Assembly (NCBI RefSeq): GCF_947568905.1
Contig: NC_079166.1
Location: 69,626,001-69,690,000 of the forward strand
Direction: 5' to 3'
DNA from: Ostrea edulis
Lineage: Eukaryota
Length of the DNA stretch: 64,000 nucleotides
Shown here one piece after another: positions 6,593 through 46,828 of this stretch; positions within the stretch are counted from its first letter, which is position 1; every line of letters begins with the position of its first letter. The translations under genes were made by a program, and so were the position numbers. The notes below the pieces were generated by a model. The model did no database searches, had not been told where the DNA came from, and saw nothing but the letters and a program-made list of their open reading frames with translations.

Positions 6593-6954
6593 AGTAGTAT
6601 AACGCCTCCCGATAGGGGGTTCAACTGAGTGCACTTTTTATGCAAATGAGGTCAAGCAAGGGCGTCTTTTGATTGGTCAAGCGGTGTTGGGGTTAACGGA
6701 GTGGTTCAATATCTAGGACGGGGTTAACCCCAGCAGGGGTTGTAGGCCGGGTGTCGGGTGAATAGGGTGGCCTATGGCCGCTGGTCTAATTTTAGCATGC
6801 GGTACTTTCGCTTTGAGTTCCTGGAATGAGTTCCTGCTATTTTTCTGAAAATCGGTATAAAATCCAGTGAAATCCTGTGAAATCCTGTGTATTAAATCTA
6901 AAACAATAACACAAGGTTTTAAGTTGACATGTTTATTAAAGAACAATGGTACAA
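6593..6954 (+). repeat. Left terminal inverted repeat (362 bp)
   Basis: Reverse complement of 26704-27055 apart from one extra aatcctgtga 10-mer and about two substitutions. Confidence 0.95.
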
Positions 6955-6968
6955 GCATAGAACAATGC

Positions 6969-7040
6969 AAAACAGTTCAATAAGCATGAAAACAGTTCAA
7001 TAAGCATAAAAAACAGTTCAATAAGCATAACAGTTCAAGC
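6969..7040 (+). repeat. Subterminal ~20-bp tandem repeat (about 3.5 copies)
   Basis: aaaacagttcaataagcat repeated directly inside the left TIR. Confidence 0.85.
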
Positions 7041-7048
7041 ACAGTCCA

Positions 7049-7966
7049 TTACTTTCTGCTGAGTTTCTTCTTCTTTTTTGGCCGTTCTTCAGTAGGTGCG
7101 GTTGGATTCCACATCTCTAACGGTGTGTATTCTCTCTTCACAGGGGATTTTGAGCCAGGTACGGACCCAATCATCGCATCTATTTCCAGTTGTTCTTCTG
7201 GACACTCACTAATCCAGTGTCCTATTTTTCCGCATTTGAAGCAAGGATCCTTTTGTTTGGTTTTCTTGCTGGTCTGTTGAGAATCTGCTGACCTCGATTT
7301 CTTACTGGTCTGCGGATAATCTGTTTTCTGTGGGCAATCCGGCGACCAATGTCCTGTTTCTCCACACGTGTAGCACGGGTTAGCAGTGTAATCTGGAGTG
7401 TATTCCTTCCTAGGTTTTTTAGAAGTCAGCTCTTCCAGCTTCTTCAGTAGGATTATGGTATGATTTCCAATCTCATTACTCAGCACATTAATGCGGTTAA
7501 CGATCCCGTCTAGTGTCGTGGTAATGATGGCGAAATCGGTCCTGCTCATGGGGGAATCTTCTCCACCGAAGGGGAGTTTATCGTATAAGCCCATCTCCAG
7601 TCCCGTAGCATCCTGTGAATCGGGAAAATAGAAGCCTAATCCGGGGTCTGTCGGATTCTGGCTAGGGAGGTAATCCGAGGTTTGGGCTATCTTCTCTTGT
7701 CGAGCAACGTGGTCTGAAGGCGTGAGATTGAAGCTCGTGGTCTGGTTCGAGGTCTGGGCCATCTTCTTCTCTTCTCTTCTTCTTTGAGCAACGTAGTCTG
7801 GAGACGTGAGCAAGAAGTTCGAGGTCTTCCCCAGTTCAGTCTTCTGATCGTCACTCTTAGCTTTCTTCAGTTCAATGTAGTCTTTCTGTGGTCCCATCTG
7901 CTTCTGTACCAGCTGATCTATTTTCTTCTGAGCTTTGTCCACAAATTCTAGTTGTTTCTGAGCCAT
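7049..7966 (-). CDS. Double CCHC zinc-knuckle protein, 305 aa
   Basis: CYTCGETGHWSPDC and CFKCGKIGHWISEC fit CX2CX4HX4C; basic C-terminus RPKKKKKLSRK; TATA-like motif at 8019-8025 on the minus strand. Confidence 0.85.
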   Translation of the reverse strand: MAQKQLEFVDKAQKKIDQLVQKQMGPQKDYIELKKAKSDDQKTELGKTSNFLLTSPDYVAQRRREEKKMAQTSNQTTSFNLTPSDHVARQEKIAQTSDYLPSQNPTDPGLGFYFPDSQDATGLEMGLYDKLPFGGEDSPMSRTDFAIITTTLDGIVNRINVLSNEIGNHTIILLKKLEELTSKKPRKEYTPDYTANPCYTCGETGHWSPDCPQKTDYPQTSKKSRSADSQQTSKKTKQKDPCFKCGKIGHWISECPEEQLEIDAMIGSVPGSKSPVKREYTPLEMWNPTAPTEERPKKKKKLSRK

Positions 7967-8126
7967 GTCTTCTGGAAGGTGATTGAAGATCGAATGAGGA
8001 CTGACACTGGGGCTCCGCTTTTATAGCCAGCAAAATGTCTAGACTATTCTGTCTCGTGGGGGGCACGTGGGGAGCACGTGGTTGCATCATCTTTTTCTGG
8101 AAAAACCGGTTTCAGCTAGAACATCG

Positions 8127-8200
8127 CGCGACCAGCGCGTGCTAGTGCACTAATTGAACTTGAAAAGCCGGTTTCTCGCGACCAGCGCGTGCTAGTGCAC
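8127..8200. repeat. Direct repeat, 2 x 24 bp
   Basis: cgcgaccagcgcgtgctagtgcac at 8127-8150 and 8177-8200, each preceded by aaaa(g)ccggtttc. Confidence 0.9.
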
Positions 8201-8286
8201 ATTGGTACACATTGACTTTAGTGGAATGGAACTTATATTGGTGTTTAAAGTAGCCCTAAAAAGGGCTGTGCATGAAGTTTTTATTT

Positions 8287-8793
8287 TTAAAAATGGCCGG
8301 CTTCATACGCAGGTTCTTCTATATACACGTGTAAGTCATGATCTTCGGATATAATGTGTTGTACTAATTGTCGAGCTCTTCTCCCGGGGAAACGTATCTC
8401 TTCGACGGTTTCCCACATCCAGTGTGCATCCCAAAACAATACCCATACACTTCTCCGGTGGCGTGGTTTCTCCAGTCGAATAAATCCCGATACTTTTTGA
8501 GTGCCGTTCAATAACGTGTAAAACTGGTAAATCATGTACTGTATGAGGGGGGAATTTTTCAGGTACATGTCACTTAAACGCAGGTAAATATCCTCCACTG
8601 TTTCATGTGACCGCAATACATAGTCAAAACACCAATTTTTAGATCGGCCCCAGCGTAATGGATGGCGACATCTCTGTACTAAATTGTCCCAGATCTCCAT
8701 CTCGTCTACATAATCTTCCACTATGGTTAAATTCTCCACTGGTTGTATTCCCTGGCGGCGGCGTCTCGCTCTTAAAATTCTCCGTGTATCCAT
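8287..8793 (-). CDS. Protein with a CRESS-virus Rep-like (HUH fold) domain lacking catalytic residues, 168 aa
   Basis: RSKNWCFDY resembles RCR motif I (R..WCFT); YMIYQ...GTQKVSGFIRLEKPR resembles Y...Q.E...GTPHLQGY; FWDAHW resembles the AHWE segment; His of motif II and Tyr of motif III are absent. Confidence 0.6.
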   Translation of the reverse strand: MDTRRILRARRRRQGIQPVENLTIVEDYVDEMEIWDNLVQRCRHPLRWGRSKNWCFDYVLRSHETVEDIYLRLSDMYLKNSPLIQYMIYQFYTLLNGTQKVSGFIRLEKPRHRRSVWVLFWDAHWMWETVEEIRFPGRRARQLVQHIISEDHDLHVYIEEPAYEAGHF

Positions 8794-8828
8794 GACTGAA
8801 GGTCAGACAAGAATGACTGTAGAAAAAC

Positions 8829-8902
8829 CAGCTGACGTACAGGTGTTTGATCACGTGGTGCAGGTGTTTGATCACGTGATGCATAACCTTTACCTATAAA
8901 TA
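8829..8902. promoter_or_regulatory. Divergent promoter with an E-box cluster and TATA box
   Basis: caggtgtttgatcacgtg at 8840-8857 and 8861-8878; CAGCTG and TGACGT upstream; TATAAATA at 8895-8902, 31 nt before the ATG at 8933. Confidence 0.6.
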
Positions 8903-8932
8903 CAGGTGTTTTCTGAACGTTCGTTATTTACT

Positions 8933-9265
8933 ATGGGCGGCAGTGCTACTACGAGAATAAATGGATATAGTTATGTACTACAATGTATGAACGTGGCCTT
9001 ACATAATCCTCACATTCAAAATGCTCGTCAATTTGTACAACAGATGTCACCGGAGGTCAGAAATGTACATAGTTTTCAACGGATTGCTGATTCATTAGCG
9101 GAGAATACCAATACGGGACGTTTACTCATGATTTATTTGTATGCTGAGGAATTGAAACAGAATCTTCCAGACCAGATGAGTGACATTGATCGGATCTCAC
9201 GCGATTGTCTACAAAAAGGATTCGTGGAACTGATTCGTATGAAAGGAATGGCTGCCCTGTTATAA
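8933..9265 (+). CDS. Bcl-2-like alpha-helical protein, paralog A (110 aa)
   Basis: SFQRIADSLAENTNTGRLLMIYLY resembles BH1 (F..V..ELF..G.NWGRIVA.F); N-terminal MGGSAT is compatible with myristoylation. Confidence 0.55.
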   Translation: MGGSATTRINGYSYVLQCMNVALHNPHIQNARQFVQQMSPEVRNVHSFQRIADSLAENTNTGRLLMIYLYAEELKQNLPDQMSDIDRISRDCLQKGFVELIRMKGMAALL

Positions 9266-9304
9266 AACAAGAACGTTTTGGATTTTTTTTTCATTTTGAT
9301 CATC

Positions 9305-9658
9305 ATGGCTGAATTAACCAACAACGTTCTTACCGCTGTATTACAGTATTTCAAGGACTACAAAGAATCGGTGAACAACGCTCGTAGCGCTGCATTACAG
9401 TGTATCAAGGACTGGAAAGAAGAACAGCCGTTGAGATATAAATTCGCCATGAAGTTGGTGATCTTTTGGGAATTTCCTATGACCTTATATGAATATTCCG
9501 GCGTTTGCAAGCATATAGCCGACAACCTGAACAGAGAGTCTGGATTGATCATGATTTATACCATGGAGCAAGAATTTAGACGACGGGAACCTGAGAAGAC
9601 TGGGGCGATTGTAGCGATTACCGATCACTGGTTGGAAAAGGTGTATAAAAAAACCTAA
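9305..9658 (+). CDS. Paralog B of the small helical (Bcl-2-like) family, 117 aa
   Basis: FPMTLYEY...GLIMIYTMEQEFRRREPEKTGAIVAITDHWLEKVY aligns with paralogs C and D. Confidence 0.7.
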   Translation: MAELTNNVLTAVLQYFKDYKESVNNARSAALQCIKDWKEEQPLRYKFAMKLVIFWEFPMTLYEYSGVCKHIADNLNRESGLIMIYTMEQEFRRREPEKTGAIVAITDHWLEKVYKKT

Positions 9659-9686
9659 ACGTTTTCTTTTCCTTTATTCGTGGAGG

Positions 9687-10034
9687 ATGGCCAGCAGTGA
9701 CAACATCGCAGAAAAAGCGCATAACCATGCATTAGAATGGGTCGAGAAAATGCAAGACGATACGGTGTTTCAAGCTGTTAAAAATTATCTGATATCGGGA
9801 GTGTTTCCAATGACTCTGGACGAATATACAGATCTACGGAACCGGATATACATCAATCTCTATAACGATGCGGGATTGATGTTAATTTATGTCCTGGGGG
9901 AGGAATTCAAGAAAAGCATGCCTGAAAAAACCGCCGAGATTGAAAGTATCACCAAGGACTGGCTTCGAGAAGTATACATAAAGTGTGAAGAACTTAATTC
10001 ATTTCATTTATTCCCGGAGGATGGCCAGCAGTGA
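9687..10034 (+). CDS. Paralog C of the small helical (Bcl-2-like) family, 115 aa
   Basis: FPMTLDEY...GLMLIYVLGEEFKKSMPEKTAEIESITKDWLREVY. Confidence 0.7.
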   Translation: MASSDNIAEKAHNHALEWVEKMQDDTVFQAVKNYLISGVFPMTLDEYTDLRNRIYINLYNDAGLMLIYVLGEEFKKSMPEKTAEIESITKDWLREVYIKCEELNSFHLFPEDGQQ

Positions 10035-10326
10035 CCACATCACAGAGAAAGCGATAGTTTATGTATTGGATTATCTCACAGACATTCATTCTTGGCAGAT
10101 TGAATTTGTGTTACACTATATGCGAGAAGAATTATTTCCCATCAGCTTAAAGGACTATCCATGTCTCTGTCAGTATTTGATCGAGAACCGGATCACCCCG
10201 CAAGCCTTAGTACTGATTCATTTAATGGGCCAGGAATTGAAACGAATTCGACCCACAGACAGAGCAGAAATCGAAAAAATCAGACTACGATGTCTTCGAG
10301 AGTTGTACGTCAAGTTAAACGTGTGA
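10021..10326 (+). CDS. Paralog D of the small helical (Bcl-2-like) family, 101 aa
   Basis: Starts ggaggATGGCCAGCAGTGAC like paralog C; FPISLKDY...ALVLIHLMGQELKRIRPTDRAEIEKIRLRCLRELY. Confidence 0.7.
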   Translation: MASSDHITEKAIVYVLDYLTDIHSWQIEFVLHYMREELFPISLKDYPCLCQYLIENRITPQALVLIHLMGQELKRIRPTDRAEIEKIRLRCLRELYVKLNV

Positions 10327-10508
10327 CTTTTAATCTGGACAATAATGAAGTGTATCTGTTACCCGAAGAAGACCGGACAAGTATCTGGATGACTGTAGCC
10401 GCTGATCGATATCGATTTCAACGCAGGATTCGAGAAATGGAAAAAATGTTGGACCCTATTTTAAAAAGACATGTGCATTGGTGTTGTGTGTGGGAGTTAT
10501 GTATTTGA
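10290..10508 (+). CDS. PPP1R15/GADD34/ICP34.5-like PP1 regulatory protein, 72 aa
   Basis: KRVTF (RVxF) followed by W...AADRYRFQRRIREMEKMLDPIL, the conserved C-terminal domain of GADD34/ICP34.5/DP71L; AATAAA at 10522-10527. Confidence 0.88.
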   Translation: MSSRVVRQVKRVTFNLDNNEVYLLPEEDRTSIWMTVAADRYRFQRRIREMEKMLDPILKRHVHWCCVWELCI

Positions 10509-11073
10509 AATATGTGACATGAATAAAATTGTTTACACGAAAGCTGTGTTTGGTTGAGTCTCTCAGAGAAGGGTTTATTTGTTGAGGAATCCAGAAAATC
10601 CTAAAGGTAGAGTGAAAATCGAATCAAATAAGGTGTTTTCTATCGAATAGACCTTATGAGATGTTTTTAGGGATGTACATGGTCGAGAAAATTTTTTTTA
10701 AAGAGGTGGTGAAGAAACATTGAACCTCGACTCGACCTCTTTAACAGCTGTTTCTTTGAAAACTATGCGACGTAGCAAAATAAAAATAAGTTTAACGCAT
10801 TCGCCGTCTCAGAATCTATCAGATTAAATCTACCTTGCACAGATATCGAATGTCTAGAAAAAGACAATGAGAAAAAACTCTCTACTCGAAAGCACAAATC
10901 CGCCATTTTGACGGCCACCATCTTGGCTTCGTCTCCGAAGCGAGGGATGTTTTCGAGGAGGTCCGCGCTTTCCTGATATATACCGGCGCACTCGTCAGTT
11001 CGCTTCACTGGTGATCCAGCACAGTTGTAGAAGATTTTTGAAGATTATTTTACAGAAGAAAGAAGAAAGAAGA

Positions 11074-11859
11074 ATGGCTGCAAGAAGAGACCCGCTCTAC
11101 AATTTCCAGACTTTGCCTGGTTTTCGGTACCGGCTGGTAGTGGTGGCTGAGGAACGGGTAGGGGAGAATTGGGTCGTGCGTTCTGAGAACGACCTGAGCA
11201 CCTTCTCCCCTTTCGACCAGAGTGGGGTCCGTGAGATCATCTGTCGGGTGCGGGCAGAGTATGAAGGGAGGGGACGCCGCCGCACCGCTCGAATCTCCAC
11301 GGCTACGAGACCGCGCCGACGGGCCCCACAGCCACCCTCACCACCACCACCTTACTCCCCGGCGACGCCTACAACACCACCACCAGCGATCCCATCAGCA
11401 CCAGTGGAATACAGCCCGGTGCCGATGAGCGACTCACCAGCGTCACCGGTGGAGTACTCGCCGAGGTCACCGTCCCCCGCACCACCTCCCAGCCCACGTC
11501 AGAGTCCGTCGCTGTTGGTGGCAGGCACGTCATCACCACCGAGACCAGCAGCCCCTGCAAGACCCCCACCACCTACCATCCGGTTTGCAGGGAGGACTCC
11601 ACCACCGAGACCAACCCACGCACCGGTGGCAACTCATCCCCCGAGGAACCACCCTATGACTGTCCCTGGCTGGGCAGATAGGGCGGTTCCTATCTGGTCT
11701 AAGTGCCCTGTCTGCTGGCAAGACAGGGTACACTCCGGTATCACGTGTAGGGGATGTGGGCAGCGCCCAGCTTGCTGCTCGTGCGTGGAAGAGTTACAGG
11801 AGCGGCGACACACCCGGGGACGGTGCCCGTTATGCCGGTTTACCGGAATCAGGGAATGA
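11074..11859 (+). CDS. Proline-rich protein with a PPxY motif and C-terminal RING-like finger (putative E3 ligase)
   Basis: PPPPY motif; C-terminal CPVC-x10-CRGC-x5-CCSC-x13-CPLC with eight potential Zn ligands; start taken at MAARRD. Confidence 0.75.
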   Translation: MAARRDPLYNFQTLPGFRYRLVVVAEERVGENWVVRSENDLSTFSPFDQSGVREIICRVRAEYEGRGRRRTARISTATRPRRRAPQPPSPPPPYSPATPTTPPPAIPSAPVEYSPVPMSDSPASPVEYSPRSPSPAPPPSPRQSPSLLVAGTSSPPRPAAPARPPPPTIRFAGRTPPPRPTHAPVATHPPRNHPMTVPGWADRAVPIWSKCPVCWQDRVHSGITCRGCGQRPACCSCVEELQERRHTRGRCPLCRFTGIRE

Positions 11860-12012
11860 AAGTCGGTCCTTAGGACCAAACGGCCCTTTTCAGGGCCACC
11901 AACTTTTTTGAAAAGACACTTTTTATTGCAAAAATCAAGAAACACACAAGTTTGTTTTAAAAAAAAAAGTTTTATTAACACAAGTAATAGTTAGAATAAA
12001 GCTATAATAAAG

Positions 12013-12510
12013 TTACATTTTCTTGACAATATAAACATGTTTATGATACTGATAAGCAAAGTCACAAATCCATTGTCTATAATGAGTCCAATTGCCTCCG
12101 GCTAATCCACATCCAATACGATAAGGAAACGCTAAAGTCTGGTAAGACAAAGTGCCTAATTCCTGTAAACATTGTTGAAACCAAAGTTCACGTTGTTCGG
12201 GGGTATCGGCATACAAGGGTAAGCGTTGAGTGCCTCTCCCGTAATCCCATTGCGCTAACAAACAGATCACATCAGGATGAGTAGAATGAGGCATAATACA
12301 CACAGTACCCGGTATTCCTCGATCCGCTGCTATAGCTAAATTTCTCCGTCCTAAAGGTTGTCGGGTCGCATACAGATTAGCCCAAGGAAATCGGTCGGCA
12401 ATACGTTGACTTAATCCATGAGGTTTCACCGTTAAACAGTTACATTGTTGTACAATAGCATCCACCCAAGGTAGAGATAATACATCTCCTCGTAGATCCG
12501 TCACCGACAT
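12013..12510 (-). CDS. Macrodomain protein (TARG1/OARD1-like ADP-ribosyl hydrolase), 165 aa
   Basis: GDVL...DAIVQQCNC...GLSQRIADRFP N-terminal signature and LAFPYRIGCGLAGGNW C-terminal signature. Confidence 0.88.
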   Translation of the reverse strand: MSVTDLRGDVLSLPWVDAIVQQCNCLTVKPHGLSQRIADRFPWANLYATRQPLGRRNLAIAADRGIPGTVCIMPHSTHPDVICLLAQWDYGRGTQRLPLYADTPEQRELWFQQCLQELGTLSYQTLAFPYRIGCGLAGGNWTHYRQWICDFAYQYHKHVYIVKKM

Positions 12511-12902
12511 GCTGGTTGACAGGTCTCACAGGTACACGTTGACCGGGGTTCTTGACTGTAAGGACAATGTTGAAACAGGTGGGGTTTAAACTTTCTCTGA
12601 GTCCAGCGCTCTCTAAACTCCTGACAGATCTCACAGGTACAGTCCTTATGCGCTATTTCTTCTTCAGGGGTGATGGTACAATGCTGCGGACACTTACACG
12701 GTAGCCAGGGTTCTCTAGTGTGACCACAACATTTATAGACAAAGGGACAATAATTCAGCTCTGCCATATACTCTATCCACTTATGTTTGGCCAGGATGTT
12801 TTCTTTTTTATAATGAAAACAGCCACAAGTTCTCCAAGGTCCTCGGCAATACCCACACACTAGTACATCTTTCTCATCTTGCACGTACCGTTCAAACGAC
12901 AT
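12501..12902 (-). CDS. Cys/His-rich protein of unknown function
   Basis: Many CxxC/CxC clusters (CGYC, CGC, CKCPQHC, CTCEIC, CTCETC); start taken at MSFERY; overlaps the macrodomain start. Confidence 0.7.
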   Translation of the reverse strand: MSFERYVQDEKDVLVCGYCRGPWRTCGCFHYKKENILAKHKWIEYMAELNYCPFVYKCCGHTREPWLPCKCPQHCTITPEEEIAHKDCTCEICQEFRERWTQRKFKPHLFQHCPYSQEPRSTCTCETCQPACR

Positions 12903-13077
12903 GATTGAGAAAAATGGTAACAAGTGACCTATGTATATAGTGTTTTTTGATGAGTCATCAACATGACGTCAGCCATCTGAGGTAGGGGATGTTTTCGAGG
13001 ACGTCCGCGCTCTCGCCTTTTTAAAACGAGCGCAACGTCAAAATCGGGCATTCCGATTTTTTAAAGGAACCAGAACC

Positions 13078-13377
13078 ATGAGCCGTAGAGTAGGACCAGA
13101 CCCTACAGTGAATGATTATTGTATCAAATGGGAGGAGGATTGGGAGCAAGAGATTGCCCCGCCGGCCTCACGGGAGGCTCTTCCCCCACCGCCCATGAGC
13201 CAGGATCTGCCCCCGCCAGAGGAAAACTGGGACGCAGAGTTAGAAGTGGTGCAACGGCCTCCGGGGAGATTGTTTTTTAAACACGGGTGGTTGCCCGTTT
13301 TTGTGTTTGACCACGAGCAACCCCCGGAGGAGCAGAAAAAGAAGAGAAGAAAGAAGAAGAAGAAGAACAGACAGTGA
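13078..13377 (+). CDS. Small acidic/proline-rich protein with a basic tail, 99 aa
   Basis: Repeated EEDWEQE and EENWDAE motifs; C-terminal KKKRRKKKKK; upstream element shared with the RING gene. Confidence 0.65.
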   Translation: MSRRVGPDPTVNDYCIKWEEDWEQEIAPPASREALPPPPMSQDLPPPEENWDAELEVVQRPPGRLFFKHGWLPVFVFDHEQPPEEQKKKRRKKKKKNRQ

Positions 13378-13626
13378 GGGGGACCGAGAAGAAAAGAAGA
13401 GAAGGAGAAGAGAAGAAGAGAAGGAGAAGAAGGAGAAGAGAGAAGAAGAAGAGAAAAGACCAAGAACAGAGAGAAAGAAAACAGCCCTTTTCAGGGCTAC
13501 CCATTCTTTTTGAAAAGACATGGTTGATTACAATGACAAGAAATTTTTTTTTTTTCCAACGTTTTATTAAACTCCAACTATGAACAATAACAATAACATA
13601 GTTTACAATACATTCAGTCTTTGACA

Positions 13627-14100
13627 TTAACAAGTTTGTCCTTGATGGGTTCTCGGTTTTCGGAAGGTCTCTTTAAACCAATCCGACACAAAACGATCGC
13701 GTTGTAAGGCCGTGCCTTTCCAGGGAAGTAACCATTCTCGTACGGTGCTTCTATGTCGATGGCGTTGATGTAAAAAATACACACAGTATTGTCCACAGAC
13801 ATCCGTATTCAAATCTTGATAACAATGGGTGTTATGAATCCAAGTCTCTCCGTGGCGTTGAATAAAGTCTTGGATGTCTTTATGGCTGGGAGGTAATCCG
13901 TAAGAATCAAAATATTCGACGGTAGGGCTACTCAAATACAAACAGACCCAATGCGCTCCAGGGCGATCGTGAGGGTCTGTATTCACCACGATGGCTTTGT
14001 GATGAGGTAACAACTCAGGTATGACATCTCGAGGATACACACCTGCAAACGCCGGTCCTAAATCTCGTTGTAAAACATCTCTCAATTGCTGAGTATCCAT
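13627..14100 (-). CDS. pro: Adenain-like cysteine protease (Polinton PRO), 157 aa
   Basis: NTDPHDRPGAHW (catalytic His), YFDSYG (Asp), QDLNTDVCGQYC (Gln and catalytic Cys). Confidence 0.95.
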   Translation of the reverse strand: MDTQQLRDVLQRDLGPAFAGVYPRDVIPELLPHHKAIVVNTDPHDRPGAHWVCLYLSSPTVEYFDSYGLPPSHKDIQDFIQRHGETWIHNTHCYQDLNTDVCGQYCVYFLHQRHRHRSTVREWLLPWKGTALQRDRFVSDWFKETFRKPRTHQGQTC

Positions 14101-14107
14101 CTCTCTC

Positions 14108-15511
14108 TTAGTAATCGATGCTGACTTCTCGTTGTTTGTTGATTTCTAGCAGATTGTCGAACACGGCATACACCACACAGTTTAAGGTCCTGGCCACGTT
14201 GGCGGCAAATTGCACTTCCACTCTCAAGTTCCCCGTCTGTATGAGATGAAATTTATCCGTCTGGGCTTCTTGATCTTTCGTGAAATCCACACACCAGAGG
14301 GTGTAACCGTTTTTATACTCTTCCAGGGTAATGTCCGGAGCCCAGTCCTGGCCTAATTTTCCCAAGCCTTTGTACAGACTCAAATACGATCTCAGGTACT
14401 GATCGTCGGTGAAATTAGGTTCCAAAGGTCGGGTTTCCATCATTTCTCCATTGATACTGATTTCTAATTTCTTGACTCTCTCATTTTGGAAATGAAAGGG
14501 GTTTCTGGTATTATCCCCATTAAAAGCCGCATTGTCCACAAAACCCAACACGATCAGTTTAGGCATCTGTCCTTGAAACAGATGATCGGTGATTTTAGAT
14601 TGGGTGCCACTAGGAATGGTGAAGGTTTTCACTTCCACTCGTCTCAATGGATATTTCGCCGTTTGAGTACTCAGTTGCTGATTGATGAGATTAATGATAC
14701 TCGGCACAGGTTTGACTTTCCTCACCCACAAGATCATACTTTGAATGACCACTTTCCCACTACTCCCGGCATCGGTCATCATGTAGAACTGGGGTCGAGC
14801 GCGATTGAATCTGAGACGGACATCCAAACCATTAGGGAGACATTTCTCTTGCTCAAACAAATCCAGATGTAATCGATCCATCAACACGATCTCCTTACTG
14901 TCTGTAATCTTCTCGTGACGTTTTCTCAACCCTACATTCTTGGAATCATCCGGATACTCGGGAGTCGGGATGACGGCCGCGATGTTGACTTTGTTAGACA
15001 CTACTGCAAATTCCACAGGAGTTTGAGCCAGAGCTTCTAATTTGACCTCATCCATATGTCCTGCCGTATCTTTTTCCCACAAGCTACAGGCTCTCATCTG
15101 GGTTTCCAGAGTCTTGGGTGCATAAGACAGCAATTTCTCCAGATACGCTTTGTAGGGATAAGTATCCGTCCCCGGGGTAATGACTTTTCCATTGAGACTG
15201 ACATCGATTTCACTGAACAAGGAATGGAGAATGTTATTCACGGGGGTGGAGGTCGAATGGCCTCCTGCGAGATTCGTTCCATTGGCTTTCGTGAATTTAC
15301 AGACCATCTGGAGATAAGTTTGGGATAAATCCAGATATTCATCTCCTTGTCCTTTGATTTCAAATTCAATCGGAGCCGTATCCGAGTTGAGGGTACTGGA
15401 AATGGGATAATATTCCATCCATTTCGAATCTTCTAAAGTGACGTTGGTCGGGGGCACTTTAAACAGTTCTAAACTGCTGGTGCCACAAGCGCAAGATTCT
15501 CGGTGCATCAT
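14108..15511 (-). CDS. Double jelly-roll major capsid protein (PY/hexon-like), 467 aa
   Basis: LELF.VPPT, PIEFEI...[43 protein letters not shown] and G.LRVEVQF motifs typical of Maverick MCP. Confidence 0.93.
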
Positions 15512-15590
15512 ATTGGAACGATGTGTTACTCAGCGTGAACTGGGATCAAATGTGTTCTGGCCTCCTTCTCACCCCCTTTTTATAGGGTTC

Positions 15591-16283
15591 TCAGTCGAAA
15601 ATATCCAGAGAGCGTTTTGGCTTACCCCTTTTCACTAGCTTCCTACCTCCCTTCCTAGATCGCTCCCTAGGTTGCTTCCTAGGTCTCTTATGAGGCCCTC
15701 CCCGAGCTAAGATACGTTGTTTTCTTTTAACAAATCCTTTTCCTTCCTGTATTCCCACCTGTTTTCCCAACTGTTTTCTTTTGAGGGTCGTGGTTCCAGG
15801 CTTCCTGAGTATTCCTGTGCGTGCTTTTCTTCCTCGTTTGGATGGGGCTTTTCGAGACCTTCGCCTACGGGCATACCCTGCTGTCTCTTTCAGGGCTTGG
15901 GTACCGTGTGTCTTGAGAGCGTCTTTGAGTGATCGTTTATTATCTAACACATCCATCCCTGTTTTAGCAGCAGCCTTTAAGGCACTTTTAGCCCCCGATT
16001 TGAGTAAATCGGTGAAAAATCCTTTTCCCTTCTGCTTTTCAGATTCTGGATCATATTCTTCTGTTGGATGGCTTCTACGTCGTCTCCTCTGATAAGAACG
16101 ATAAGGGCGGTCGTAATCATAATATCTCTCTTGATAGACAGGACGCTGTTGTTGTTGTTGCTGTTGTGTGGGGGCTCCACCTAATAATCCGCTGATCAGG
16201 GGACCCGCCACTTTGCTAGCTATTCCCAACAGGGCTCCAAGCCCGTGACCCTGCTGCCGTATTAAACCTTTATGGTAGTGCAT
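15591..16283 (-). CDS. Basic virion core-like protein with QxGxG motifs, 230 aa
   Basis: QQGHGLG, QKGKGFF and QEGKGFV motifs; amphipathic helix; Arg/Lys-rich C-terminus; adjacent to MCP. Confidence 0.75.
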   Translation of the reverse strand: MHYHKGLIRQQGHGLGALLGIASKVAGPLISGLLGGAPTQQQQQQQRPVYQERYYDYDRPYRSYQRRRRRSHPTEEYDPESEKQKGKGFFTDLLKSGAKSALKAAAKTGMDVLDNKRSLKDALKTHGTQALKETAGYARRRRSRKAPSKRGRKARTGILRKPGTTTLKRKQLGKQVGIQEGKGFVKRKQRILARGGPHKRPRKQPRERSRKGGRKLVKRGKPKRSLDIFD

Positions 16284-16456
16284 CTTGATGTAAATGAACT
16301 TCGTTAGGGGTTACACCCGCTTTTTATACTTTTTACGCCGTCTTTTCTCTTCTTTCCTTGGCCCGCTTGACCCACAATGGCATTGGCAATCCACGGAATG
16401 AGAAACCAGATTCCGTGTCCTTTCTGGCGTCTGACACCTCGATGGTACTTCATCTT

Positions 16457-17455
16457 TCAATACACTTTGCGGAAATGAAGTTTGACTAAGGAGCGCCCAT
16501 TTAAAAACCCCATAGGACGCCCTAAAGAATTCATGATGTGTACCTCAATGGTATCGAAATATTTCTTACTCAGTTTCAAATATTCGGCTCGAATCGGTTC
16601 CCAACGGGCTTGTTGTCGATCGTCGTATTGACCCGTACAGGGGACGACTCTCAATAATTTCAATTTGTTGGTGCCCACCACTTGAGGATCCACAATGTCA
16701 CAATACACATACATGGCTTTCAGATTGTCGTAGACATCCATGGTCGTGTTCCCCAAGTAATTCACGTTGATCCATTTCGTCATGGTTTCATCGCCCAGGA
16801 TCATTTTGTCACTATCCAGACCTAGCTTGTACGCTAAGGGCGTAGGGAAACGAATGCACATGGGGGTGGTTCTCAGTGCTTTCCCATTAAACTGATACTC
16901 GACACGATCGTACTCGGGGTGATACACTAAGATCTGGTTGTTCCCCTCGTCGTTAGGATTCCCTAACTCGCTCCATACTTTCCACAGGGTTCTCCTTAAG
17001 GCTGCGTTGATTTCATTGATTAACGCCAAAGGTTGTGTATAAGCTCCGGGTCGGAAGTGAATGCGAATGATATCGAAGGGAAATAAACTATCCCCTCCCG
17101 CAAAGAGATGGGACCATGGCGTCAGATCCCAGGGGACCACCACCTCACACCTGGCCATCGTGACTTTACCCATATTCTCTGTCTTAAATCTTTCCCATTT
17201 ATAAGTGTTGGGATCTTGGACATGTTTCGTATACGGATCTGGAATGAGAACGTCCACATAAGCCTCGCTATCCGATACGTTTTGTAAGTTGACCGAGTAC
17301 ATCATTTCGGTCAATCCGACTTCCCATGCTCCACCCGTTAAGTCCATGGTGTGTGGCAATAACGTTTTAAATTGAGCAGTCGTATTCGTCGGAAACGATT
17401 CCATCGACCCATCACTCAACAGAGTCATGTAAAACCCTTCTCCTCCTCCAGCCAT
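16457..17455 (-). CDS. Minor capsid protein (penton, PX), 332 aa
   Basis: FYMTLLSD.S...FP.NT...F...L....L.G.WEVGL N-terminus and YVYCDIVDPQVVG....LLRVVP C-terminus. Confidence 0.93.
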   Translation of the reverse strand: MAGGGEGFYMTLLSDGSMESFPTNTTAQFKTLLPHTMDLTGGAWEVGLTEMMYSVNLQNVSDSEAYVDVLIPDPYTKHVQDPNTYKWERFKTENMGKVTMARCEVVVPWDLTPWSHLFAGGDSLFPFDIIRIHFRPGAYTQPLALINEINAALRRTLWKVWSELGNPNDEGNNQILVYHPEYDRVEYQFNGKALRTTPMCIRFPTPLAYKLGLDSDKMILGDETMTKWINVNYLGNTTMDVYDNLKAMYVYCDIVDPQVVGTNKLKLLRVVPCTGQYDDRQQARWEPIRAEYLKLSKKYFDTIEVHIMNSLGRPMGFLNGRSLVKLHFRKVY

Positions 17456-17672
17456 GATGTCTTAAATGAGCCCCTGTCTCTGTTTCCTTCTCTATTTATA
17501 CTCATAACACAATGAACATTTTCATATTTTATTGAACATACAACATAATGTTAATACACAATTTTACATGTCATTCTTCTTGATCGCGACCACCACCCCA
17601 CATCAACGCATCCGAGTCTTCCAACTCTAGTGTTCGTCTCGGGACTAAGCGTCGTCGCATCACCAGATAGTG

Positions 17673-18020
17673 TCAGGTTCCCCAGCAATCGGCTACATCA
17701 TAACCTTCATTGATCATGTCTTTAAAATGTCGGAGACAGTCCTCGGAATGGTCAAACCAAGGACTCTCATTTAAGGTCCAATCGGATTCGTCTTGTCGTC
17801 CCATCAATCCCCAGAAGGCTTTGACTTTCCAACGAAACTCTTGATACTTGGTCTTCATGATAAAGGCTGACCATCCGTGAGGTATCACGATCCGTTTGTA
17901 CAAGTACACCGGTTGATCTAACACTTTGTGTTGTTTACAATGCATCAAACACATCTGCTTATCCCAGAACCAGGTACTTTTCTTCCCCTCTTGTTTCCAG
18001 GCGTACTGTGGCTTAACCAT
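17673..18020 (-). CDS. Trp-rich hypothetical protein, 115 aa
   Basis: Open ORF in the compact gene array; internal repeat STWFWDKQMCLMHCK / SPWFDHSEDCLRHFK. Confidence 0.6.
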   Translation of the reverse strand: MVKPQYAWKQEGKKSTWFWDKQMCLMHCKQHKVLDQPVYLYKRIVIPHGWSAFIMKTKYQEFRWKVKAFWGLMGRQDESDWTLNESPWFDHSEDCLRHFKDMINEGYDVADCWGT

Positions 18021-18270
18021 GGTGAACTGATGAATCTGAAGAAGATCGTTCCTGTTTTATACTCGGGCTCGCTAACGTCATTTGTGGACTAGGCATGACG
18101 TAACCCACGAGAGAACTTAAGGTCACCATCCAAAAATCGCGATTGGGATCGCCTAAGGCTAACATCACGACCGACGTAATAATGATGGTTAAACACAGGA
18201 ATAATTGTGCAAAATACACAATTTCTGCTCGGGGGACTTTTTCACCCAAGAAAGTCCACTGGTTGGTCAT
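18013..18270 (-). CDS. Small two-TM membrane protein, 85 aa
   Basis: Two hydrophobic helices ending in W...LSSLVGYVMPSP; TATA-like motif at 18372-18379 on the minus strand. Confidence 0.7.
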   Translation of the reverse strand: MTNQWTFLGEKVPRAEIVYFAQLFLCLTIIITSVVMLALGDPNRDFWMVTLSSLVGYVMPSPQMTLASPSIKQERSSSDSSVHHG

Positions 18271-19351
18271 GGCCGAATGAGATCCGTTGCGGAATCCATG
18301 AATCAAAACTGGGAGGATATCCTTTCCAACGCACTTTGACTTCTGAAATGACTTTTTTTCCCACACGCCGCTTTTTATACCCTAAAATTTCTTCCACTTC
18401 ATAGACATCATCGTCTTTAATCACTTGTTGTAATTCCTTCTCGTAAAACGTTCCTTCTAATTCTTCCCCGTGATCATCTTGAATGCGATAGACGTTTCGT
18501 CCTGGCACTTTTCTAGAGATGGTAAACAGTTCTTTGGTCCAATTCGGTAAATATCCTTTTTCAAACGTACGTTTAGCTTTACTAATGCGTACACGATCCC
18601 CCACTTGCAAGCGACTCGTGGTATCGGCACTCTGTTTTCCATACAAGGTTTTCCATACGGTCAAGACATTCTTGGCATTGACTTGAGCAGGAGCTCGCCG
18701 GATACTGCGATGATAGGTATGATTGTAACCATACACCAGATCGGCCAAGACATCGACATACCGTCGTGTTTTATGACGTGTAAAATACCGCCACATACGT
18801 GCTTTCAGCGTGCGTTGAAAACGTTCCACAATACTGGCTTTGGTTTCGGCATTACGGGTCGTAAAGAAATGAATGGATTTGAAGGCTTGACGAAATTCTT
18901 TATTGGTAAATTCTTTTCCTTGATCGGACTGAATGCGCACGGGGCGACGTCCCTCTCGAAAAATCCGTCGTAAGCCTCGTATCATTTCTTTCCCCGTTTT
19001 CTGTTTTAAAGGCACGACCCAGGCATATTTAGACAGCACGTCAATGGCACATAATAAAAACGTATACCCATTATTGTCTTGTTTCAAGCTGGAGACATCG
19101 GCTAAATCTAATTGCCATTGTTCATCCATATCCGTCACTCGTGTTTGTCGTCGCTTGAATTTCCTCCGTATCGGTTTATGCAAGGTATAGGTATCTTGAG
19201 CTTTCACCCATTCTCGAATTTGAGACAGGGTAATCTTGTGTCCTAATTGACGCACTTGACGATACAACGCCTGGACTCCCCCATACCCTGTCTTGGGATC
19301 GTAATACAGTCGCTGTAAGATCTGTTCTGCTTTCATGGTAGATTTAACCAT
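18242..19351 (-). CDS. int: Retroviral-type (rve) integrase with C-terminal chromodomain
   Basis: QLDLAD, QSDQGKEF and IVERFQRTLK give D-D-E; YEVEEIL...VKVRWKGYPPSFDSWIP is a chromodomain. Confidence 0.96.
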   Translation of the reverse strand: MVKSTMKAEQILQRLYYDPKTGYGGVQALYRQVRQLGHKITLSQIREWVKAQDTYTLHKPIRRKFKRRQTRVTDMDEQWQLDLADVSSLKQDNNGYTFLLCAIDVLSKYAWVVPLKQKTGKEMIRGLRRIFREGRRPVRIQSDQGKEFTNKEFRQAFKSIHFFTTRNAETKASIVERFQRTLKARMWRYFTRHKTRRYVDVLADLVYGYNHTYHRSIRRAPAQVNAKNVLTVWKTLYGKQSADTTSRLQVGDRVRISKAKRTFEKGYLPNWTKELFTISRKVPGRNVYRIQDDHGEELEGTFYEKELQQVIKDDDVYEVEEILGYKKRRVGKKVISEVKVRWKGYPPSFDSWIPQRISFGHDQPVDFLG

Positions 19352-20100
19352 TTTCCAATTTCACGTGATGTCTTTTTACTGGCCTCCCAGATATTTTTAG
19401 GGGTCATCATTCGTCTGGGAGTTTCATAGAACGATTGGTCAAAACCAGAGATTTCTTGAAATCCGCTCTCCTCTTCCTCTAGAGGTCTAGGCGTACTGAT
19501 TTTCCCTGGTTTGTCCATGGCTTTTATAACATCCCGATTGTTCACATATCCTTTGGGAGCATGAGTCTCTTTTAACGCTTGAGCAAATTCCTCTAATCCC
19601 GTGGGGGGATCACGATGTCTTAAGGGTCTTTGTCGTTGGGCTTCGGTCATTAAATCCACAATATTGGAATCGGGAACCCTGCGTCCTCTATAACTGATTT
19701 CTCCTTCTTTATTCCAAGTCACCACTTTGGATTTCTTGAGATGATCGAGTAATAAACCTGCTTTCTTTCGACCCGGTTTATTGACGCTTTTGATAATCTG
19801 TTCCTCCAAGTCATCGGATGCTGAGGCGGCTGAGGGTGGTGAGGCAGCACTGGCTGCACTGGTTGGGGAGGGCAGAGTCGCTGTGGTGGGATGTCGAGCT
19901 TGTTGTAAATATTGACGATAGCGATGAAGTTGATGCCCGTACAACCCCACTTTTTCTTTCTCGGTTAAATCATCTCGATGTTCAATCTCGTCCAAATCAG
20001 TGCGTAAACCAATAGTCGAGGTAAATTCGGGAGGTTTAGGTAATTTGCCTTTTAATTCGTTGAGCATCGCTTCCGGTACCAACACCATTTTTCGACTCAT
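19333..20100 (-). CDS. Conserved Maverick protein of unknown function (PW/PZ class), 255 aa
   Basis: RKMVLVP, DL.EKEKV.LY...L.RY and WN..GEI...G..VP.SNIVDL motifs recurring in Mavericks. Confidence 0.75.
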   Translation of the reverse strand: MSRKMVLVPEAMLNELKGKLPKPPEFTSTIGLRTDLDEIEHRDDLTEKEKVGLYGHQLHRYRQYLQQARHPTTATLPSPTSAASAASPPSAASASDDLEEQIIKSVNKPGRKKAGLLLDHLKKSKVVTWNKEGEISYRGRRVPDSNIVDLMTEAQRQRPLRHRDPPTGLEEFAQALKETHAPKGYVNNRDVIKAMDKPGKISTPRPLEEEESGFQEISGFDQSFYETPRRMMTPKNIWEASKKTSREIGKWLNLP

Positions 20101-20426
20101 GATTTCTTACAAATCTTGCCACACACAAACGAACCCAATCCTTTTTGGTGGATGAGTATACCTCGTCGTTTTTTCACGGGTTGAGGGTGGACTAAGCGTC
20201 TTAAGATGTGTTTCTTTCGACCCAGTTGTCGCTTCTGAGTAGGATTGAGAGGAATCACCCCTTTTAATAGATTGTACACAATCTCACAAATCTTTAAAAT
20301 GCAGTCATTGGAACAATGTTTCAACACCTCTGTCTTTAATTTGCTGGAATAGTGAGGAGCCGCTAACGTCTGCAAGAGCGGTAAATGAGGTCGTAATCGA
20401 CATTCACACTTCTTCGTATGAGCCAT
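20097..20426 (-). CDS. Basic core-like protein, 109 aa
   Basis: ICEIVYNLLKGVIPL...KRQL...K..LRRL...QKGLG; ATGA stop/start overlap with the next ORF; TATA-like motif at 20458-20465. Confidence 0.7.
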   Translation of the reverse strand: MAHTKKCECRLRPHLPLLQTLAAPHYSSKLKTEVLKHCSNDCILKICEIVYNLLKGVIPLNPTQKRQLGRKKHILRRLVHPQPVKKRRGILIHQKGLGSFVCGKICKKS

Positions 20427-20466
20427 GGTAATGAAGGGTGGGGCACCTTCCCCCTCCTTTTTATAC

Positions 20467-21351
20467 CTAGTCCAGGACAATGGCACTCGGATGTTTAGGA
20501 TCAAAACGCTTGTGATGGACGGTCTCTTCGTGACGATTGCGGTTCTCTCTCGCATTGAAGACCAGAGGGCAAAATTTACATTTATATTTCTTTTGCACCT
20601 GAACCGGTGTTGAGGTGGTTAAGGGTTGAAATTTCATGCTTCCAAAGGTATGAGCAAAACTCGGTAGAGCCGTATCACTGGTTCTGGAACTTCCTATAGG
20701 CCCATGCATGGGTCGTTCCATTTTCTTTTGAGCTAATCCGGCTTTCAGATTGGCTAACGTTTTAGTGACCTTGGGGGGAGTGGCCTTGGGAAACGGCATC
20801 TTCACAATGAGAGGGGTTTTCTTTGGAGCCCAATTGGGAAACGGATTCTTCATCCTGAGAGGTGTCTTCTTAGGGGATTTCTTAGGGGACTTCTTAGGGG
20901 ACTTCTTAGGTGTCTTCTTAGGTAAGCGAATAATGAGTTTAGGAATTCTCTGAGGTGATTTTTTAGCTTTCTTAGCCCGTGGCTTCTTGGTTTTCTTGGG
21001 TTGTCCCCCACGGGGCTTACGGCCTGTTTCCCATTTGAATAAATGACGAATAATGGTCCCTCCTAAGAATCCGGCGCCTCCTCGTTTCAAAATGGCTTTT
21101 TTACGCTCTTCTTCATTGGACTTCTTATCGGCAATGACACTCAAGTCTTGGCGATGGGATTGAATGAACCGCTGAGTGATTTTATTGCCTGGTAAGACGC
21201 CTCGCAATAAATTTCGATCGCCCATCGCAAACCAGTTGAGTAAGGCTCTACGTCCTAATTCAATGAGATGGCTCCGTTGAACGGGATCCCGTTCCCGTTG
21301 TAAACGGCGTAACGTTTTGACTAATTTACTCTTCGCGGAAGGTCTACCCAT
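20467..21351 (-). CDS. Core-protein paralog fused to histone H1-like SPKK repeats and a C2H2 zinc finger
   Basis: NLLRGVLPG...KKAILKRGGAGFLGG resembles the 20097-20426 protein; PKKTPKKSPKKSPKKSPKKTP; YKCKFCPLVFNARENRNRHEETVH; start at MGRPSAK preferred because of the TATA-like motif at 21398-21405. Confidence 0.75.
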   Translation of the reverse strand: MGRPSAKSKLVKTLRRLQRERDPVQRSHLIELGRRALLNWFAMGDRNLLRGVLPGNKITQRFIQSHRQDLSVIADKKSNEEERKKAILKRGGAGFLGGTIIRHLFKWETGRKPRGGQPKKTKKPRAKKAKKSPQRIPKLIIRLPKKTPKKSPKKSPKKSPKKTPLRMKNPFPNWAPKKTPLIVKMPFPKATPPKVTKTLANLKAGLAQKKMERPMHGPIGSSRTSDTALPSFAHTFGSMKFQPLTTSTPVQVQKKYKCKFCPLVFNARENRNRHEETVHHKRFDPKHPSAIVLD

Positions 21352-21400
21352 GATGAAGACTGTCTTTCGAATGATACACCTGCCCATGATGTGACATTAT

Positions 21401-22054
21401 TTATACTCTCGGGGGCATGTGCACAGCCAAGTTGGTAAAGAGTTGACTTCTTAATCTTAAATCGTCCGACGTCTGAGGACTCAAGTCCACTAGTAAATAC
21501 CCGTGAGGTACACGGGTGGCGTCCTCATAGGCTGGAAGTAAATGCGGCATTTGTAATTGCCGACTTAACACCCCAATCTGAGATTTATCTCGAGGATTTT
21601 TAAACAGCACAAGATAGTGAGCATTCAGACTGATGGTACGATGTTGTACTGCTCGATCAAACAGATTTTGTGTGATATAAATGACACTGGTATTTCGATG
21701 ATGCGCTTTGCGCGTAAACCAGTCGACAATCGATTCGATGGCTTTACCTCCCATCATATCATCAAAAATGAGTAGATGACGCGTACTGAGATCCGCCACT
21801 ATCTGCTCATCGTCTTGAGGTATATTGCGGATAAAAGTGACCTTGTCCTGTAAGGATTCGTACGCGGACTGCCATTCTCGATAACACCATACTATCTTTT
21901 CGGGAGGCGGTGCAATCCACTGCGTATTTTGTACCAGTTGCTTGACAAATTCCGTTTTACCCGATTTAGAGGGTCCAGCCACCACCATGGTAAATTCATG
22001 TTTCAACTGAAAAGGCTCAAGTGTCTCGTAGGTATACATCTTGATAAATGACAC
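21401..22054 (-). CDS. FtsK/A32-like DNA packaging ATPase, 217 aa
   Basis: Walker A GPSKSGKT, Walker B LLIFDD, and RKAHHRNTSVIYITQNLF. Confidence 0.95.
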   Translation of the reverse strand: MSFIKMYTYETLEPFQLKHEFTMVVAGPSKSGKTEFVKQLVQNTQWIAPPPEKIVWCYREWQSAYESLQDKVTFIRNIPQDDEQIVADLSTRHLLIFDDMMGGKAIESIVDWFTRKAHHRNTSVIYITQNLFDRAVQHRTISLNAHYLVLFKNPRDKSQIGVLSRQLQMPHLLPAYEDATRVPHGYLLVDLSPQTSDDLRLRSQLFTNLAVHMPPRV

Positions 22055-22079
22055 AAGTTCATGGGATCATACATATTTA

Positions 22080-22610
22080 TTAACAAATAAAAATACGTAC
22101 AGCTTGCTCAACACTATGTCTACAAATAGGACATTGTTTCAGTCCCGTAGCACATATAGCACAAGTACATAAATGACCACAAGGTAAAAAAGCTATTCTC
22201 AAGTCTCTTTCTAAACACAGATGACATTTCTCCGTCGTCGTAGCCGGATTCTCCACACTGTCTACAGACAAGTCTCCCCAATCCTTCCCTGTGTCTCGCA
22301 TTCGGCTAACGGCGTCGAACATTTGGCGTACCCATTGTTTGCCCTTATTACACTTCAGGTAAGGACAGTGAGGATACCAATAAGCATGTTGTATCCAAGG
22401 ATTGTCGACAGCTCCCCAATGGTGAAGTCCAAAGTTGCAATAAAAACAGCACGTGCTATCCCCGTACCCTTTGTAAAAGTATCCCGCTTCTGCAATGGTA
22501 GGTAATAGCTTCTGCAAGTGTTCGGAAGCATTTTCAAACGACGCTACTCGATCTGACAGTAGAGCATAACGTGGTGTACCCGGGTTATGTAGTGATTCGT
22601 AGTCCGTCAT
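22080..22610 (-). CDS. iap: Inhibitor of apoptosis protein (single BIR + RING), 176 aa
   Basis: BIR: R..SF...AEAGYFY.G..D...CFYC...L..W...DNPW.QHA.W.P.C; RING: C..C...R...FLPCGH...C..CA..L..CPICR. Confidence 0.95.
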   Translation of the reverse strand: MTDYESLHNPGTPRYALLSDRVASFENASEHLQKLLPTIAEAGYFYKGYGDSTCCFYCNFGLHHWGAVDNPWIQHAYWYPHCPYLKCNKGKQWVRQMFDAVSRMRDTGKDWGDLSVDSVENPATTTEKCHLCLERDLRIAFLPCGHLCTCAICATGLKQCPICRHSVEQAVRIFIC

Positions 22611-22646
22611 TTTTGCCGACTGATGGTTTTCTCTAGCATGTCCTTT

Positions 22647-26627: not shown

Positions 26628-26703
26628 TGCACCGCGCGCCGCTTTATATATATTACCTGTAGACAGCGCTGGGTAAAACTAGGGATCGTGCCAGCTCTGG
26701 GGA

Positions 26704-27055: not shown

Positions 27056-27061
27056 ATGGCT

Positions 27062-46808: not shown

Positions 46809-46828
46809 TCGCCCTGTAATAGAAGAGG

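Follow-up and report, generated by a model that had tools for sequence, protein, structure and literature searches.

A complete Maverick carries the Rep-like gene

The window, that is the whole 64,000-nt stretch of DNA analysed here, contains a complete Maverick/Polinton of 20.5 kb (6593..27055), recognised by its terminal inverted repeats, target duplication and Pfam genes. The inverted repeats, placed by a repeat search at 6593..6879 (+) and 26769..27055 (-), are perfect over 288 nt, and the 6-bp target duplication, ATGGCT, lies at 6587-6592 and 27056-27061. Pfam matches identify pPolB (22647-26606), IAP (22080-22610), the A32 ATPase (21401-22039), the rve integrase (18242-19351) and an adenain-type protease (13627-14100). 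A 467-aa ORF at 14108-15511 is the probable major capsid gene, judged from its size, position and strong conservation and having no Pfam capsid match, and a probable minor capsid gene, assigned by size and position without a Pfam match, lies at 16457-17455. The Rep-like gene (8287..8793, -) is flanked by a zinc-knuckle gene near the left end of the element (7049-7966) and by four helical paralogues read divergently from it. A reading of this DNA made earlier from the letters alone (hereafter the sequence-only reading) had taken the host of the gene to be a Maverick, and the inverted repeats, the 6-bp duplication and the pPolB, integrase, ATPase and protease genes bear this out.

Several other features of the element and its surroundings were noted. 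The four helical paralogues are tandem ORFs of 101-117 aa (8933-10326, +), 15-21% identical to the first of them, with a common L-x-x-I-x5-E motif and a copy number that differs between elements. A resemblance to Bcl-2 BH1 was considered; a Bcl-2-like identity was dropped, as it had neither PDB nor Pfam support. A 115-aa ORF (10161-10508, +) overlaps the fourth paralogue in another frame, its C-terminal part being kept in other alleles at 49-67%. Further along, a 165-aa ORF (12013-12510, -), doubled in some copies (L038, L046), gives weak PDB matches to two hypothetical proteins (E 0.003) and to a macrodomain protein (E 0.21), and a purine-rich low-complexity repeat with spurious ORFs (13240-13627) separates the protease gene from the accessory arm. 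A conserved, hairpin-like short word of the CAGCCCTTTT..AGGGCT type follows gene ends at 8250-8269, 11878-11914 and 13479-13515, and is possibly a transcription end signal. The insertion is flanked by two intronless rhodopsin-type GPCR genes recognised by Pfam (4370-5467 and 29872-31071, -), and an LTR retrotransposon with gag-like, protease, RT, RNase H and integrase regions (Pfam) occupies 42584-48981 (-) of the window.

The Rep-like protein stops at the endonuclease domain boundary

The gene at 8287..8793 (-) encodes a protein of 168 aa, assigned by Pfam, HHalign and Foldseek/VIA as a CRESS-type HUH endonuclease domain, apparently inactivated. All motifs named in the sequence-only reading are present: WCF at residues 54-56, YMIYQ at 86-90, GTQKVSGFI at 97-105 and AHW at 123-125. 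The last of these holds as letters and fails as a conserved motif, since its H is found in only 5 of the 20 aligned family members and is replaced by Asp in 8 of 82 close copies; its likeness to a Rep motif is thus partly coincidence.

The HUH-fold core spans residues 48-168 (8290..8652, -), which VIA aligns to residues 2-96 of 6h8o. In a joint alignment with CRESS domains, the motif I equivalent is W54-L60 (8614..8634, -), without the motif I Thr; the motif II equivalent is G97-F104 (8482..8505, -), with K100 and S102 in the His and Gln columns; and the motif III equivalent is H146-I-I-S149 (8347..8358, -), where CRESS Reps and the family's subfamily D have YxxK. An Arg-rich N-terminal stretch (8755..8784, -) is a candidate nuclear-localisation signal, and basic runs N-terminal of motif I occur also in alleles B, C and D. 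Near the C-terminus, Y163-E-A-G166 resembles the E-x-G that is found at most 16 residues past YxxK in 66 of 93 CRESS domains. By both VIA and the alignment, the ORF reaches just to the limit of the Rep endonuclease domain, and the oligomerisation and SF3 helicase domains of active CRESS Reps are absent from it. The missing helicase domain had been remarked on before; we likewise found none in the 168-aa ORF, nor any fused form or longer relative in a (weak) search among longer proteins.

Sequence comparisons point to a CRESS-type Rep

Viral_Rep (PF02407) is the sole Pfam family matched by the 168-aa protein, at 16.6 bits (E=0.0094), which falls below the curated cut-off of 26 bits. Weak matches to the same family were given by 6 of 13 aligned family members and by 5 of 12 outside relatives. 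The CRESS comparison set was obtained by scanning IMG/VR with a circovirus-type motif II pattern, 94 of the 124 loci yielding usable natural domains, and is therefore biased. HHalign of the family against these 94 domains gave a probability of 95.1-95.9; because the set had been chosen by motif II, the comparison was also made with motif II masked, and the probability was then 88.3-93.3, as against at most 5.4 for 40 column-shuffled control alignments. The profile check proposed in the sequence-only reading thus turned out positive, weakly so by Pfam and at high probability by HHalign.

Taken alone, the window protein scored 8.3 bits against the CRESS profile; the 99th percentile of shuffles was 4.0, and the best of 1000 reached 11.4. 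Among the 20 family members, 17 exceeded the 99th percentile of 1000 shuffles and only 2 the best shuffle, and neither reversed sequences nor 21 other ORFs of the element scored above 0.7 bits. ESM Atlas gave 0.77 for the whole window protein, which we treat as a lead only, and 0.95 to CRESS clusters for residues 28-148 of the relative P0030, with 199 of 256 features in common. Motifs I, II and III follow the CRESS order, with insertions of ~6-8 residues between them.

Other searches were less productive. PDB sequence and profile searches brought up kinesin and further chance matches but no Rep, and a single-sequence homologue search found P0001 only. A PF02407 scan of this genome for endogenous CRESS Reps gave no match anywhere, its controls being equally silent. 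The TPR-like proteins P0006-P0010 and P0013, which resemble repeat artefacts, and P0012, a partial relative with an unrelated-looking tail, were kept out of the alignments.

Predicted structures rank Rep endonuclease domains first

The model of the window protein has a pLDDT of 61.5 (core about 80), and a second model, that of P0030, a pLDDT of 64.8. In spite of this modest pLDDT, the strand-helix order of the window model agrees with the alpha-beta fold of HUH/Rep domains. Foldseek against the PDB placed nanovirus M-Rep on top for the window model (E=5.6e-4), followed by Vientovirus, geminivirus and circovirus Rep domains, and placed circovirus Rep first for the P0030 model (E=1.1e-4). In BFVD, the window model had 123 matches at E<=0.001, and every named entry among the best 50 was a Rep protein. 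VIA aligned 95 residues of it with nanovirus M-Rep (6h8o; Z 10.1, rmsd 2.5), circovirus, Vientovirus, plasmid RepB and HPV18 E1 domains following at Z 9.1-9.6. The check by model and Foldseek that had been suggested beforehand therefore favours Rep endonuclease domains. For the P0030 model, adenovirus E4-ORF3 (Z 8.6), a metal-binding domain (8.5) and PCV2 Rep' (8.1) were tied; on this predicted structure VIA cannot tell Rep and generic ferredoxin folds apart. For the window model, identity was 14-21% to CRESS domains and 6-10% to the others. Over both models, identity in the structure alignments was 14-25% to CRESS domains (Vientovirus 12-16%) and 4-10% to plasmid RepB, papillomavirus E1 and E4-ORF3.

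It could be argued that the protein has a generic ferredoxin/RRM-like fold which resembles Rep motifs by chance. A Pfam score below cut-off, the lack of any PDB sequence match to Rep and the VIA ties of the second model would all suit this explanation. It has difficulty, however, in accounting for three motifs in the right order, for a profile match that persists with motif II masked, for YxxK in 9 of 20 family members and for the higher identity to CRESS than to non-CRESS domains. A non-Rep origin is in our opinion largely refuted and scarcely credible, and the gene has very probably descended from a CRESS-type Rep.

As for the proximate donor, the sequence-only reading had proposed a transfer from an ssDNA virus to a Polinton. 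A Rep-derived gene does reside in a Maverick, as that proposal requires; its direct donor may instead have been a virophage (10.64898/2026.10.13.758929). Whatever the function of the gene, a Rep-bearing virophage or Polinton-like virus could have supplied it, as Gulliviroviridae are described as tending to have circovirus Rep-like nickases and replicases as moving widely among polisuviruses (10.64898/2026.10.13.758929), and HUH genes are reported in mriyavirus-like PLV groups (10.64898/2026.06.19.733378). Since a virophage family already uses circovirus Rep-like nickases, the transfer was not necessarily straight from an ssDNA virus. On the other hand, the nearest clusters and models are those of CRESS viruses, and our IMG/VR scan contained no intermediate, so that we regard a virophage or Polinton-like donor as possible, though somewhat unlikely. 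Scans of viral and metagenome collections gave no genomic context for subfamily D or for P0002/P0003, and a phage collection gave no match. The lone scan match, L123, proved to be an unrelated phage stretch and was rejected.

Catalytic residues are replaced in the Rep-like domain

In CRESS Reps, as described in PMC8780604, the His and Gln of motif II together with a Glu of strand 2 are metal ligands, the Thr of motif I positions these ligands, and motif III provides the Tyr nucleophile and a Lys. In the joint alignment, the window protein has K100 and S102 in the motif II columns, Y92 in the Glu column, no Thr, and H146 and S149 in the Tyr and Lys columns. The motif II columns are K and S in 20/20 family members each, as against H and Q in 94/94 CRESS domains each, and of the 119 matches from 122 loci of this genome, 116 have KVS at motif II. 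The earlier statement that HUH has become KVS is thus correct. The accompanying statement that the motif III position reads L is not, as L143 lies three residues N-terminal of the Tyr column; the substitution itself is real, Tyr being found there in 0 of 113 in-frame matches from this genome. Four residues, K100, S102, R111 and R139, are invariant in 20/20 family members.

The nine family members with YxxK are all metagenome proteins of subfamily D, in which motif II reads K-I-S. Subfamily D also has a Glu, for which a catalytic role was considered and set aside; it stands one column off the CRESS Glu, the column of which is Tyr in 19/20 family members, and the register is uncertain for that reason. 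Judged by its residues, the Rep-like domain is predicted to be catalytically dead, with neither metal-binding nor cutting residues. The simplest reading, with the tree unrooted, would be that the metal ligands were lost before the Tyr, since subfamily D still has YxxK. The central claim of the sequence-only reading, that a Maverick carries a Rep domain of CRESS type which is catalytically dead, thus stands on Pfam, HHalign, Foldseek and the motif columns.

The gene is a lineage-specific accessory gene with several alleles

The genome (895 Mb, 52 contigs) was searched for the gene, and 150 of 153 candidates were scored. The 147 matches consist of 82 full-length copies of allele A (95-100% identical), 8 pieces, which represent 4 broken A-like copies, and 57 matches at 27-59%. 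Three alleles (A, B and C) occupy one slot and are 43-52% identical (A vs C 43-45%). In a sample of 20 further loci, the zinc-knuckle gene lay beside it in all 20 and the first helical gene in 18, and the divergent loci belong to alleles B and C; the element terminus, near the gene, is common to 37 of 40 further loci. The gene lies at most 35 kb away, and on the expected side, from each of the 79 closest (near-identical) ATPase copies, and beside 29 of 35 ATPase copies at 87-92%. Eight loci of the lineage lack it: two show separate clean deletions in degraded copies, one of them bounded by direct repeats, and in the other six the entire arm is missing within the 20 kb examined. Four distant ATPase loci, 40 kb each, gave no match to the family profile. 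In a public run, a 1027-nt contig holds a gene of about 90% identity beside the same neighbour. Because of this distribution across ATPase copies and distant loci, the Rep-like gene is regarded as a lineage-specific accessory gene.

In allele C, one and the same repeat flanks the Rep-like gene left and right, read in the same direction (L266 8210-8500 and the flanks in L041), and one allele C copy has lost the gene between direct repeats. Such repeats are a possible route for cassette exchange.

A gene that is kept in 79/79 closest copies might be thought to help replication, its product binding either the termini or the single strand that is displaced in protein-primed strand-displacement replication. 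The element terminus starts AGTAGTATAAC, which is like the circovirus nonanucleotide in 8 of 9 positions. Rep endonuclease domains are moreover described as binding ssDNA (PMC8780604). However, positions 8-9 of the terminal word differ between copies, and the protein diverges much faster than the core genes. Other Mavericks apparently manage without the gene, since the four distant ATPase loci gave no match, and a distant Maverick that lacks it starts AGTAGTGTAA. Terminal TAGTATAAC was discarded as a nonanucleotide target on account of the variation among copies and of this gene-less element, and we consider a replication helper quite unlikely.

The gene is kept under purifying selection

Selection was assessed by counting variants column by column among 82 A copies that had been selected for being intact; the counts take no account of recombination, and dS is near saturation. 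Shared variants of allele A gave a dN/dS of 0.33 (20 syn : 21 nonsyn, P=4.7e-4) and private variants one of 1.01, as would be seen if elements were under selection while they replicate and drifted once inserted. The same count on shared variants gave 0.19 for the capsid gene, 0.12 for the protease, 0.29 for the RING gene and 0.34 for the first helical gene, and 0.93 and 1.08 for two other accessory ORFs. For allele C the shared dN/dS was 0.34 (P=0.014, 26 copies), and for allele B it was 0.79, not significant (P=0.35, 11 copies, 4 frameshifted). The test that had been proposed thus indicates purifying selection in alleles A and C. Between alleles, dN/dS was 0.18-0.42 (NG86; one of 19 pairs saturated). 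The Rep-like gene is kept under purifying selection.

Between alleles, the gene has a dN of 0.37-0.49 and a dS of 1.2-2.6 (NG86), and the capsid gene a dN of 0.06-0.09 and a dS of about 0.8. As its dN is far above that of the capsid gene, the Rep-like alleles are older or faster than the backbone, and they may have been swapped as cassettes. Fast divergence of this kind, with three alleles in one slot, would also suit a protein-interaction module in which the dead fold acts on the host (cell cycle, antiviral or death pathways) and not on the DNA of the element. The gene lies in an accessory arm with RING, macrodomain-like and tandem helical ORFs, the element carries an IAP, and adenovirus E4-ORF3 is a fold neighbour, at Z 8.1-8.6 and 5-6% identity. 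A helicase-less Rep relative with host partners is also described, mastrevirus RepA, which binds host RBR and GRAB proteins (PMC10548238), but its host-binding motifs map to a region that is absent from the Rep-like protein. Moreover, the invariant residues are basic and include old nucleic-acid-binding positions, which speaks against a protein-interaction module. A role on the host is in our view unlikely.

Repeats beside the gene suggest a role in regulation

Two direct repeats with the core AGCGCGTG were found by a repeat search at 8124..8200 (+), between the Rep-like gene and the TATA box of the zinc-knuckle gene. They are candidate binding sites, either iteron-like or for a host factor. 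On the other side of the gene, sequence inspection points to a divergent promoter region between it and the four helical ORFs (8794..8932). The AGCGCGTG core occurs 3 times in the 20.5-kb element, where 0.3 would be expected, 2 of the 3 copies lying just downstream of the gene, and in 37 of 40 further loci it lies at most 600-700 nt from the gene. In all three alleles, variable-number tandem repeats with this core adjoin the gene upstream of TATA boxes. Against a regulatory role through these repeats, they do not change along with the allele: nearly the same repeat is found in A and C, whose proteins are 43-45% identical. The core also fits a host bHLH-type site, and the repeats of allele B contain an E2F-type site.

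A fold that is dead and yet constrained must have a non-catalytic job. We propose, tentatively and at somewhat less than an even chance, that the product is a nuclear, non-cutting DNA-binding protein which tunes the neighbouring promoters of the element. A circo/nano-type rep gene would have entered an ancestor of the lineage, either straight from a CRESS virus or by way of a Rep-bearing polisuvirus, and would then have been trimmed to the boundary of the endonuclease domain, losing its metal ligands first and its Tyr later. The Lys and Ser that are invariant at the former active site may, together with several invariant Arg/Lys, now hold DNA without cleaving it; the new invariants (K100, S102, R111, R139) do lie at or near that site, which supports DNA binding. 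The basic N-terminus would direct the protein into the nucleus, the localisation signal of PCV2 Rep being described in the N-terminal region (PMC10193959). Its binding sites there would be the short tandem repeats next to the gene, from which it would repress or switch the transcription units on either side, like geminivirus Rep at iterons, whose autorepression is reported to be independent of replication activity (PMC10548238). The sequence-only reading cited E1 and large T as a precedent, and PMC6668415 agrees that their origin-binding domains are HUH domains that have lost activity.

More specifically, a Polinton lineage may have turned a circovirus-type nickase into a stand-alone iteron-binding switch between latency and activity of the integrated virus, an idea which we put forward as doubtful. 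If it were true, the transition from HUH to origin-binding domain seen in papilloma- and polyomaviruses would have been replayed independently, and an intermediate that kept the Tyr after losing its metal ligands would survive to this day.

The protein resembles captured Reps of other dsDNA viruses

The closest parallel is provided by avipoxvirus apvRep-1, -3 and -4, CRESS Reps captured by a dsDNA virus, consisting of the endonuclease domain only and lacking HUH and Tyr (PMC10193959). The apvReps belong to a cytoplasmic poxvirus and have lost the localisation-signal region, whereas the present gene belongs to an integrating Maverick and its product keeps a basic N-terminus (PMC10193959). Compared by description, and assuming independent origins, a Tyr-retaining intermediate subfamily exists among the relatives of the present protein, unlike in the apvReps. 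ApvRep-1 is reported to be under purifying selection, and its authors propose either regulation or a dominant-negative defence (PMC10193959).

The second of these proposals would make the present protein a decoy that occupies the origin of co-infecting CRESS viruses or poisons their Rep. For the apvReps it was devalued because they are cytoplasmic (PMC10193959); here a nuclear location is conceivable, since the basic N-terminus is kept, and several old alleles would suit an arms race. Nevertheless, the idea is weakened by the absence of an oligomerisation domain for joining Rep hexamers (domain roles as in PMC8780604), and the strand-4 region, which sets ssDNA specificity, aligns poorly with CRESS Reps. 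We therefore consider a decoy very unlikely and retain promoter regulation as the preferred reading.

With the circovirus/nanovirus Rep endonuclease domain (PF02407; 6h8o, 6wdz, 7kij) the protein shares the fold, the order of motifs I-II-III and the domain end. It differs from it in lacking the His/Gln/Glu ligands, the motif I Thr, the catalytic Tyr (alleles A-C) and the oligomerisation and SF3 helicase domains, and in the insertions between motifs. Papillomavirus E1 and polyomavirus large T have the inactivated HUH fold in common with it (PMC6668415; VIA Z 9.1 for HPV18 E1). These domains remain fused to a helicase, are indispensable for initiating replication and retain none of the three motifs, and identity is here about 10%. 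HHV-6 U94 and fowl adenovirus ORF12 are likewise ssDNA-virus Reps captured by dsDNA viruses (PMC10193959, PMC11071296), although their described donor is a parvovirus and not of the CRESS type; U94 has inactivated nuclease motifs, as here, but keeps a working helicase. Gulliviroviridae nickases and the mriyavirus HUH also lie within capsid-related dsDNA viruses. They are treated as replicases, and the mriyavirus HUH is predicted to be active (PMC11253617), whereas the present element has an intact pPolB and carries its Rep domain as a dead accessory gene. The Rep-like protein is thus akin to a captured apvRep or an origin-binding domain and stands outside the active Rep family.

Literature searches, which included two adintovirus papers (PMC8502044, PMC11071296) and PMC11296320 and covered subscription journals thinly, brought up no dead Rep domain in a Maverick/Polinton. 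As far as these searches reach, the Maverick host is new, and the sequence-only reading was right to that extent; the kind of gene, and both the regulator and the decoy proposal, had already been published for apvRep-1/3/4 (PMC10193959).

Rep capture, known from pox-, herpes- and adenoviruses, is hereby extended to Mavericks, which integrate. By implication, an ancestral Maverick met a CRESS virus or a Rep-bearing polisuvirus inside one cell, which agrees with Mavericks behaving as real viruses. The gene is also a convenient case for testing how a nickase turns into a DNA-binding protein, because it is small, shows graded catalytic loss in four allele groups and has candidate target repeats adjoining it. 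To our knowledge, the control of Mavericks' own activity is poorly known, and an element-encoded regulator, if true, would be a first handle on it.

Related and rearranged elements in the genome

A distant Maverick-like element of 13.7 kb (L256-L259; G000:C1:82616551-82630204) has ~2-kb inverted repeats, an ATPase and an integrase; no pPolB or Rep-like gene was detected in it. L268-L269, L274-L275 and L278-L279 are derivatives with internal deletions that leave the left terminus 2-4 kb away from the ATPase gene. At L032 (3305-7862), the left arm is duplicated in inverted orientation around one Rep-like gene, giving two zinc-knuckle genes and two outward-facing termini.
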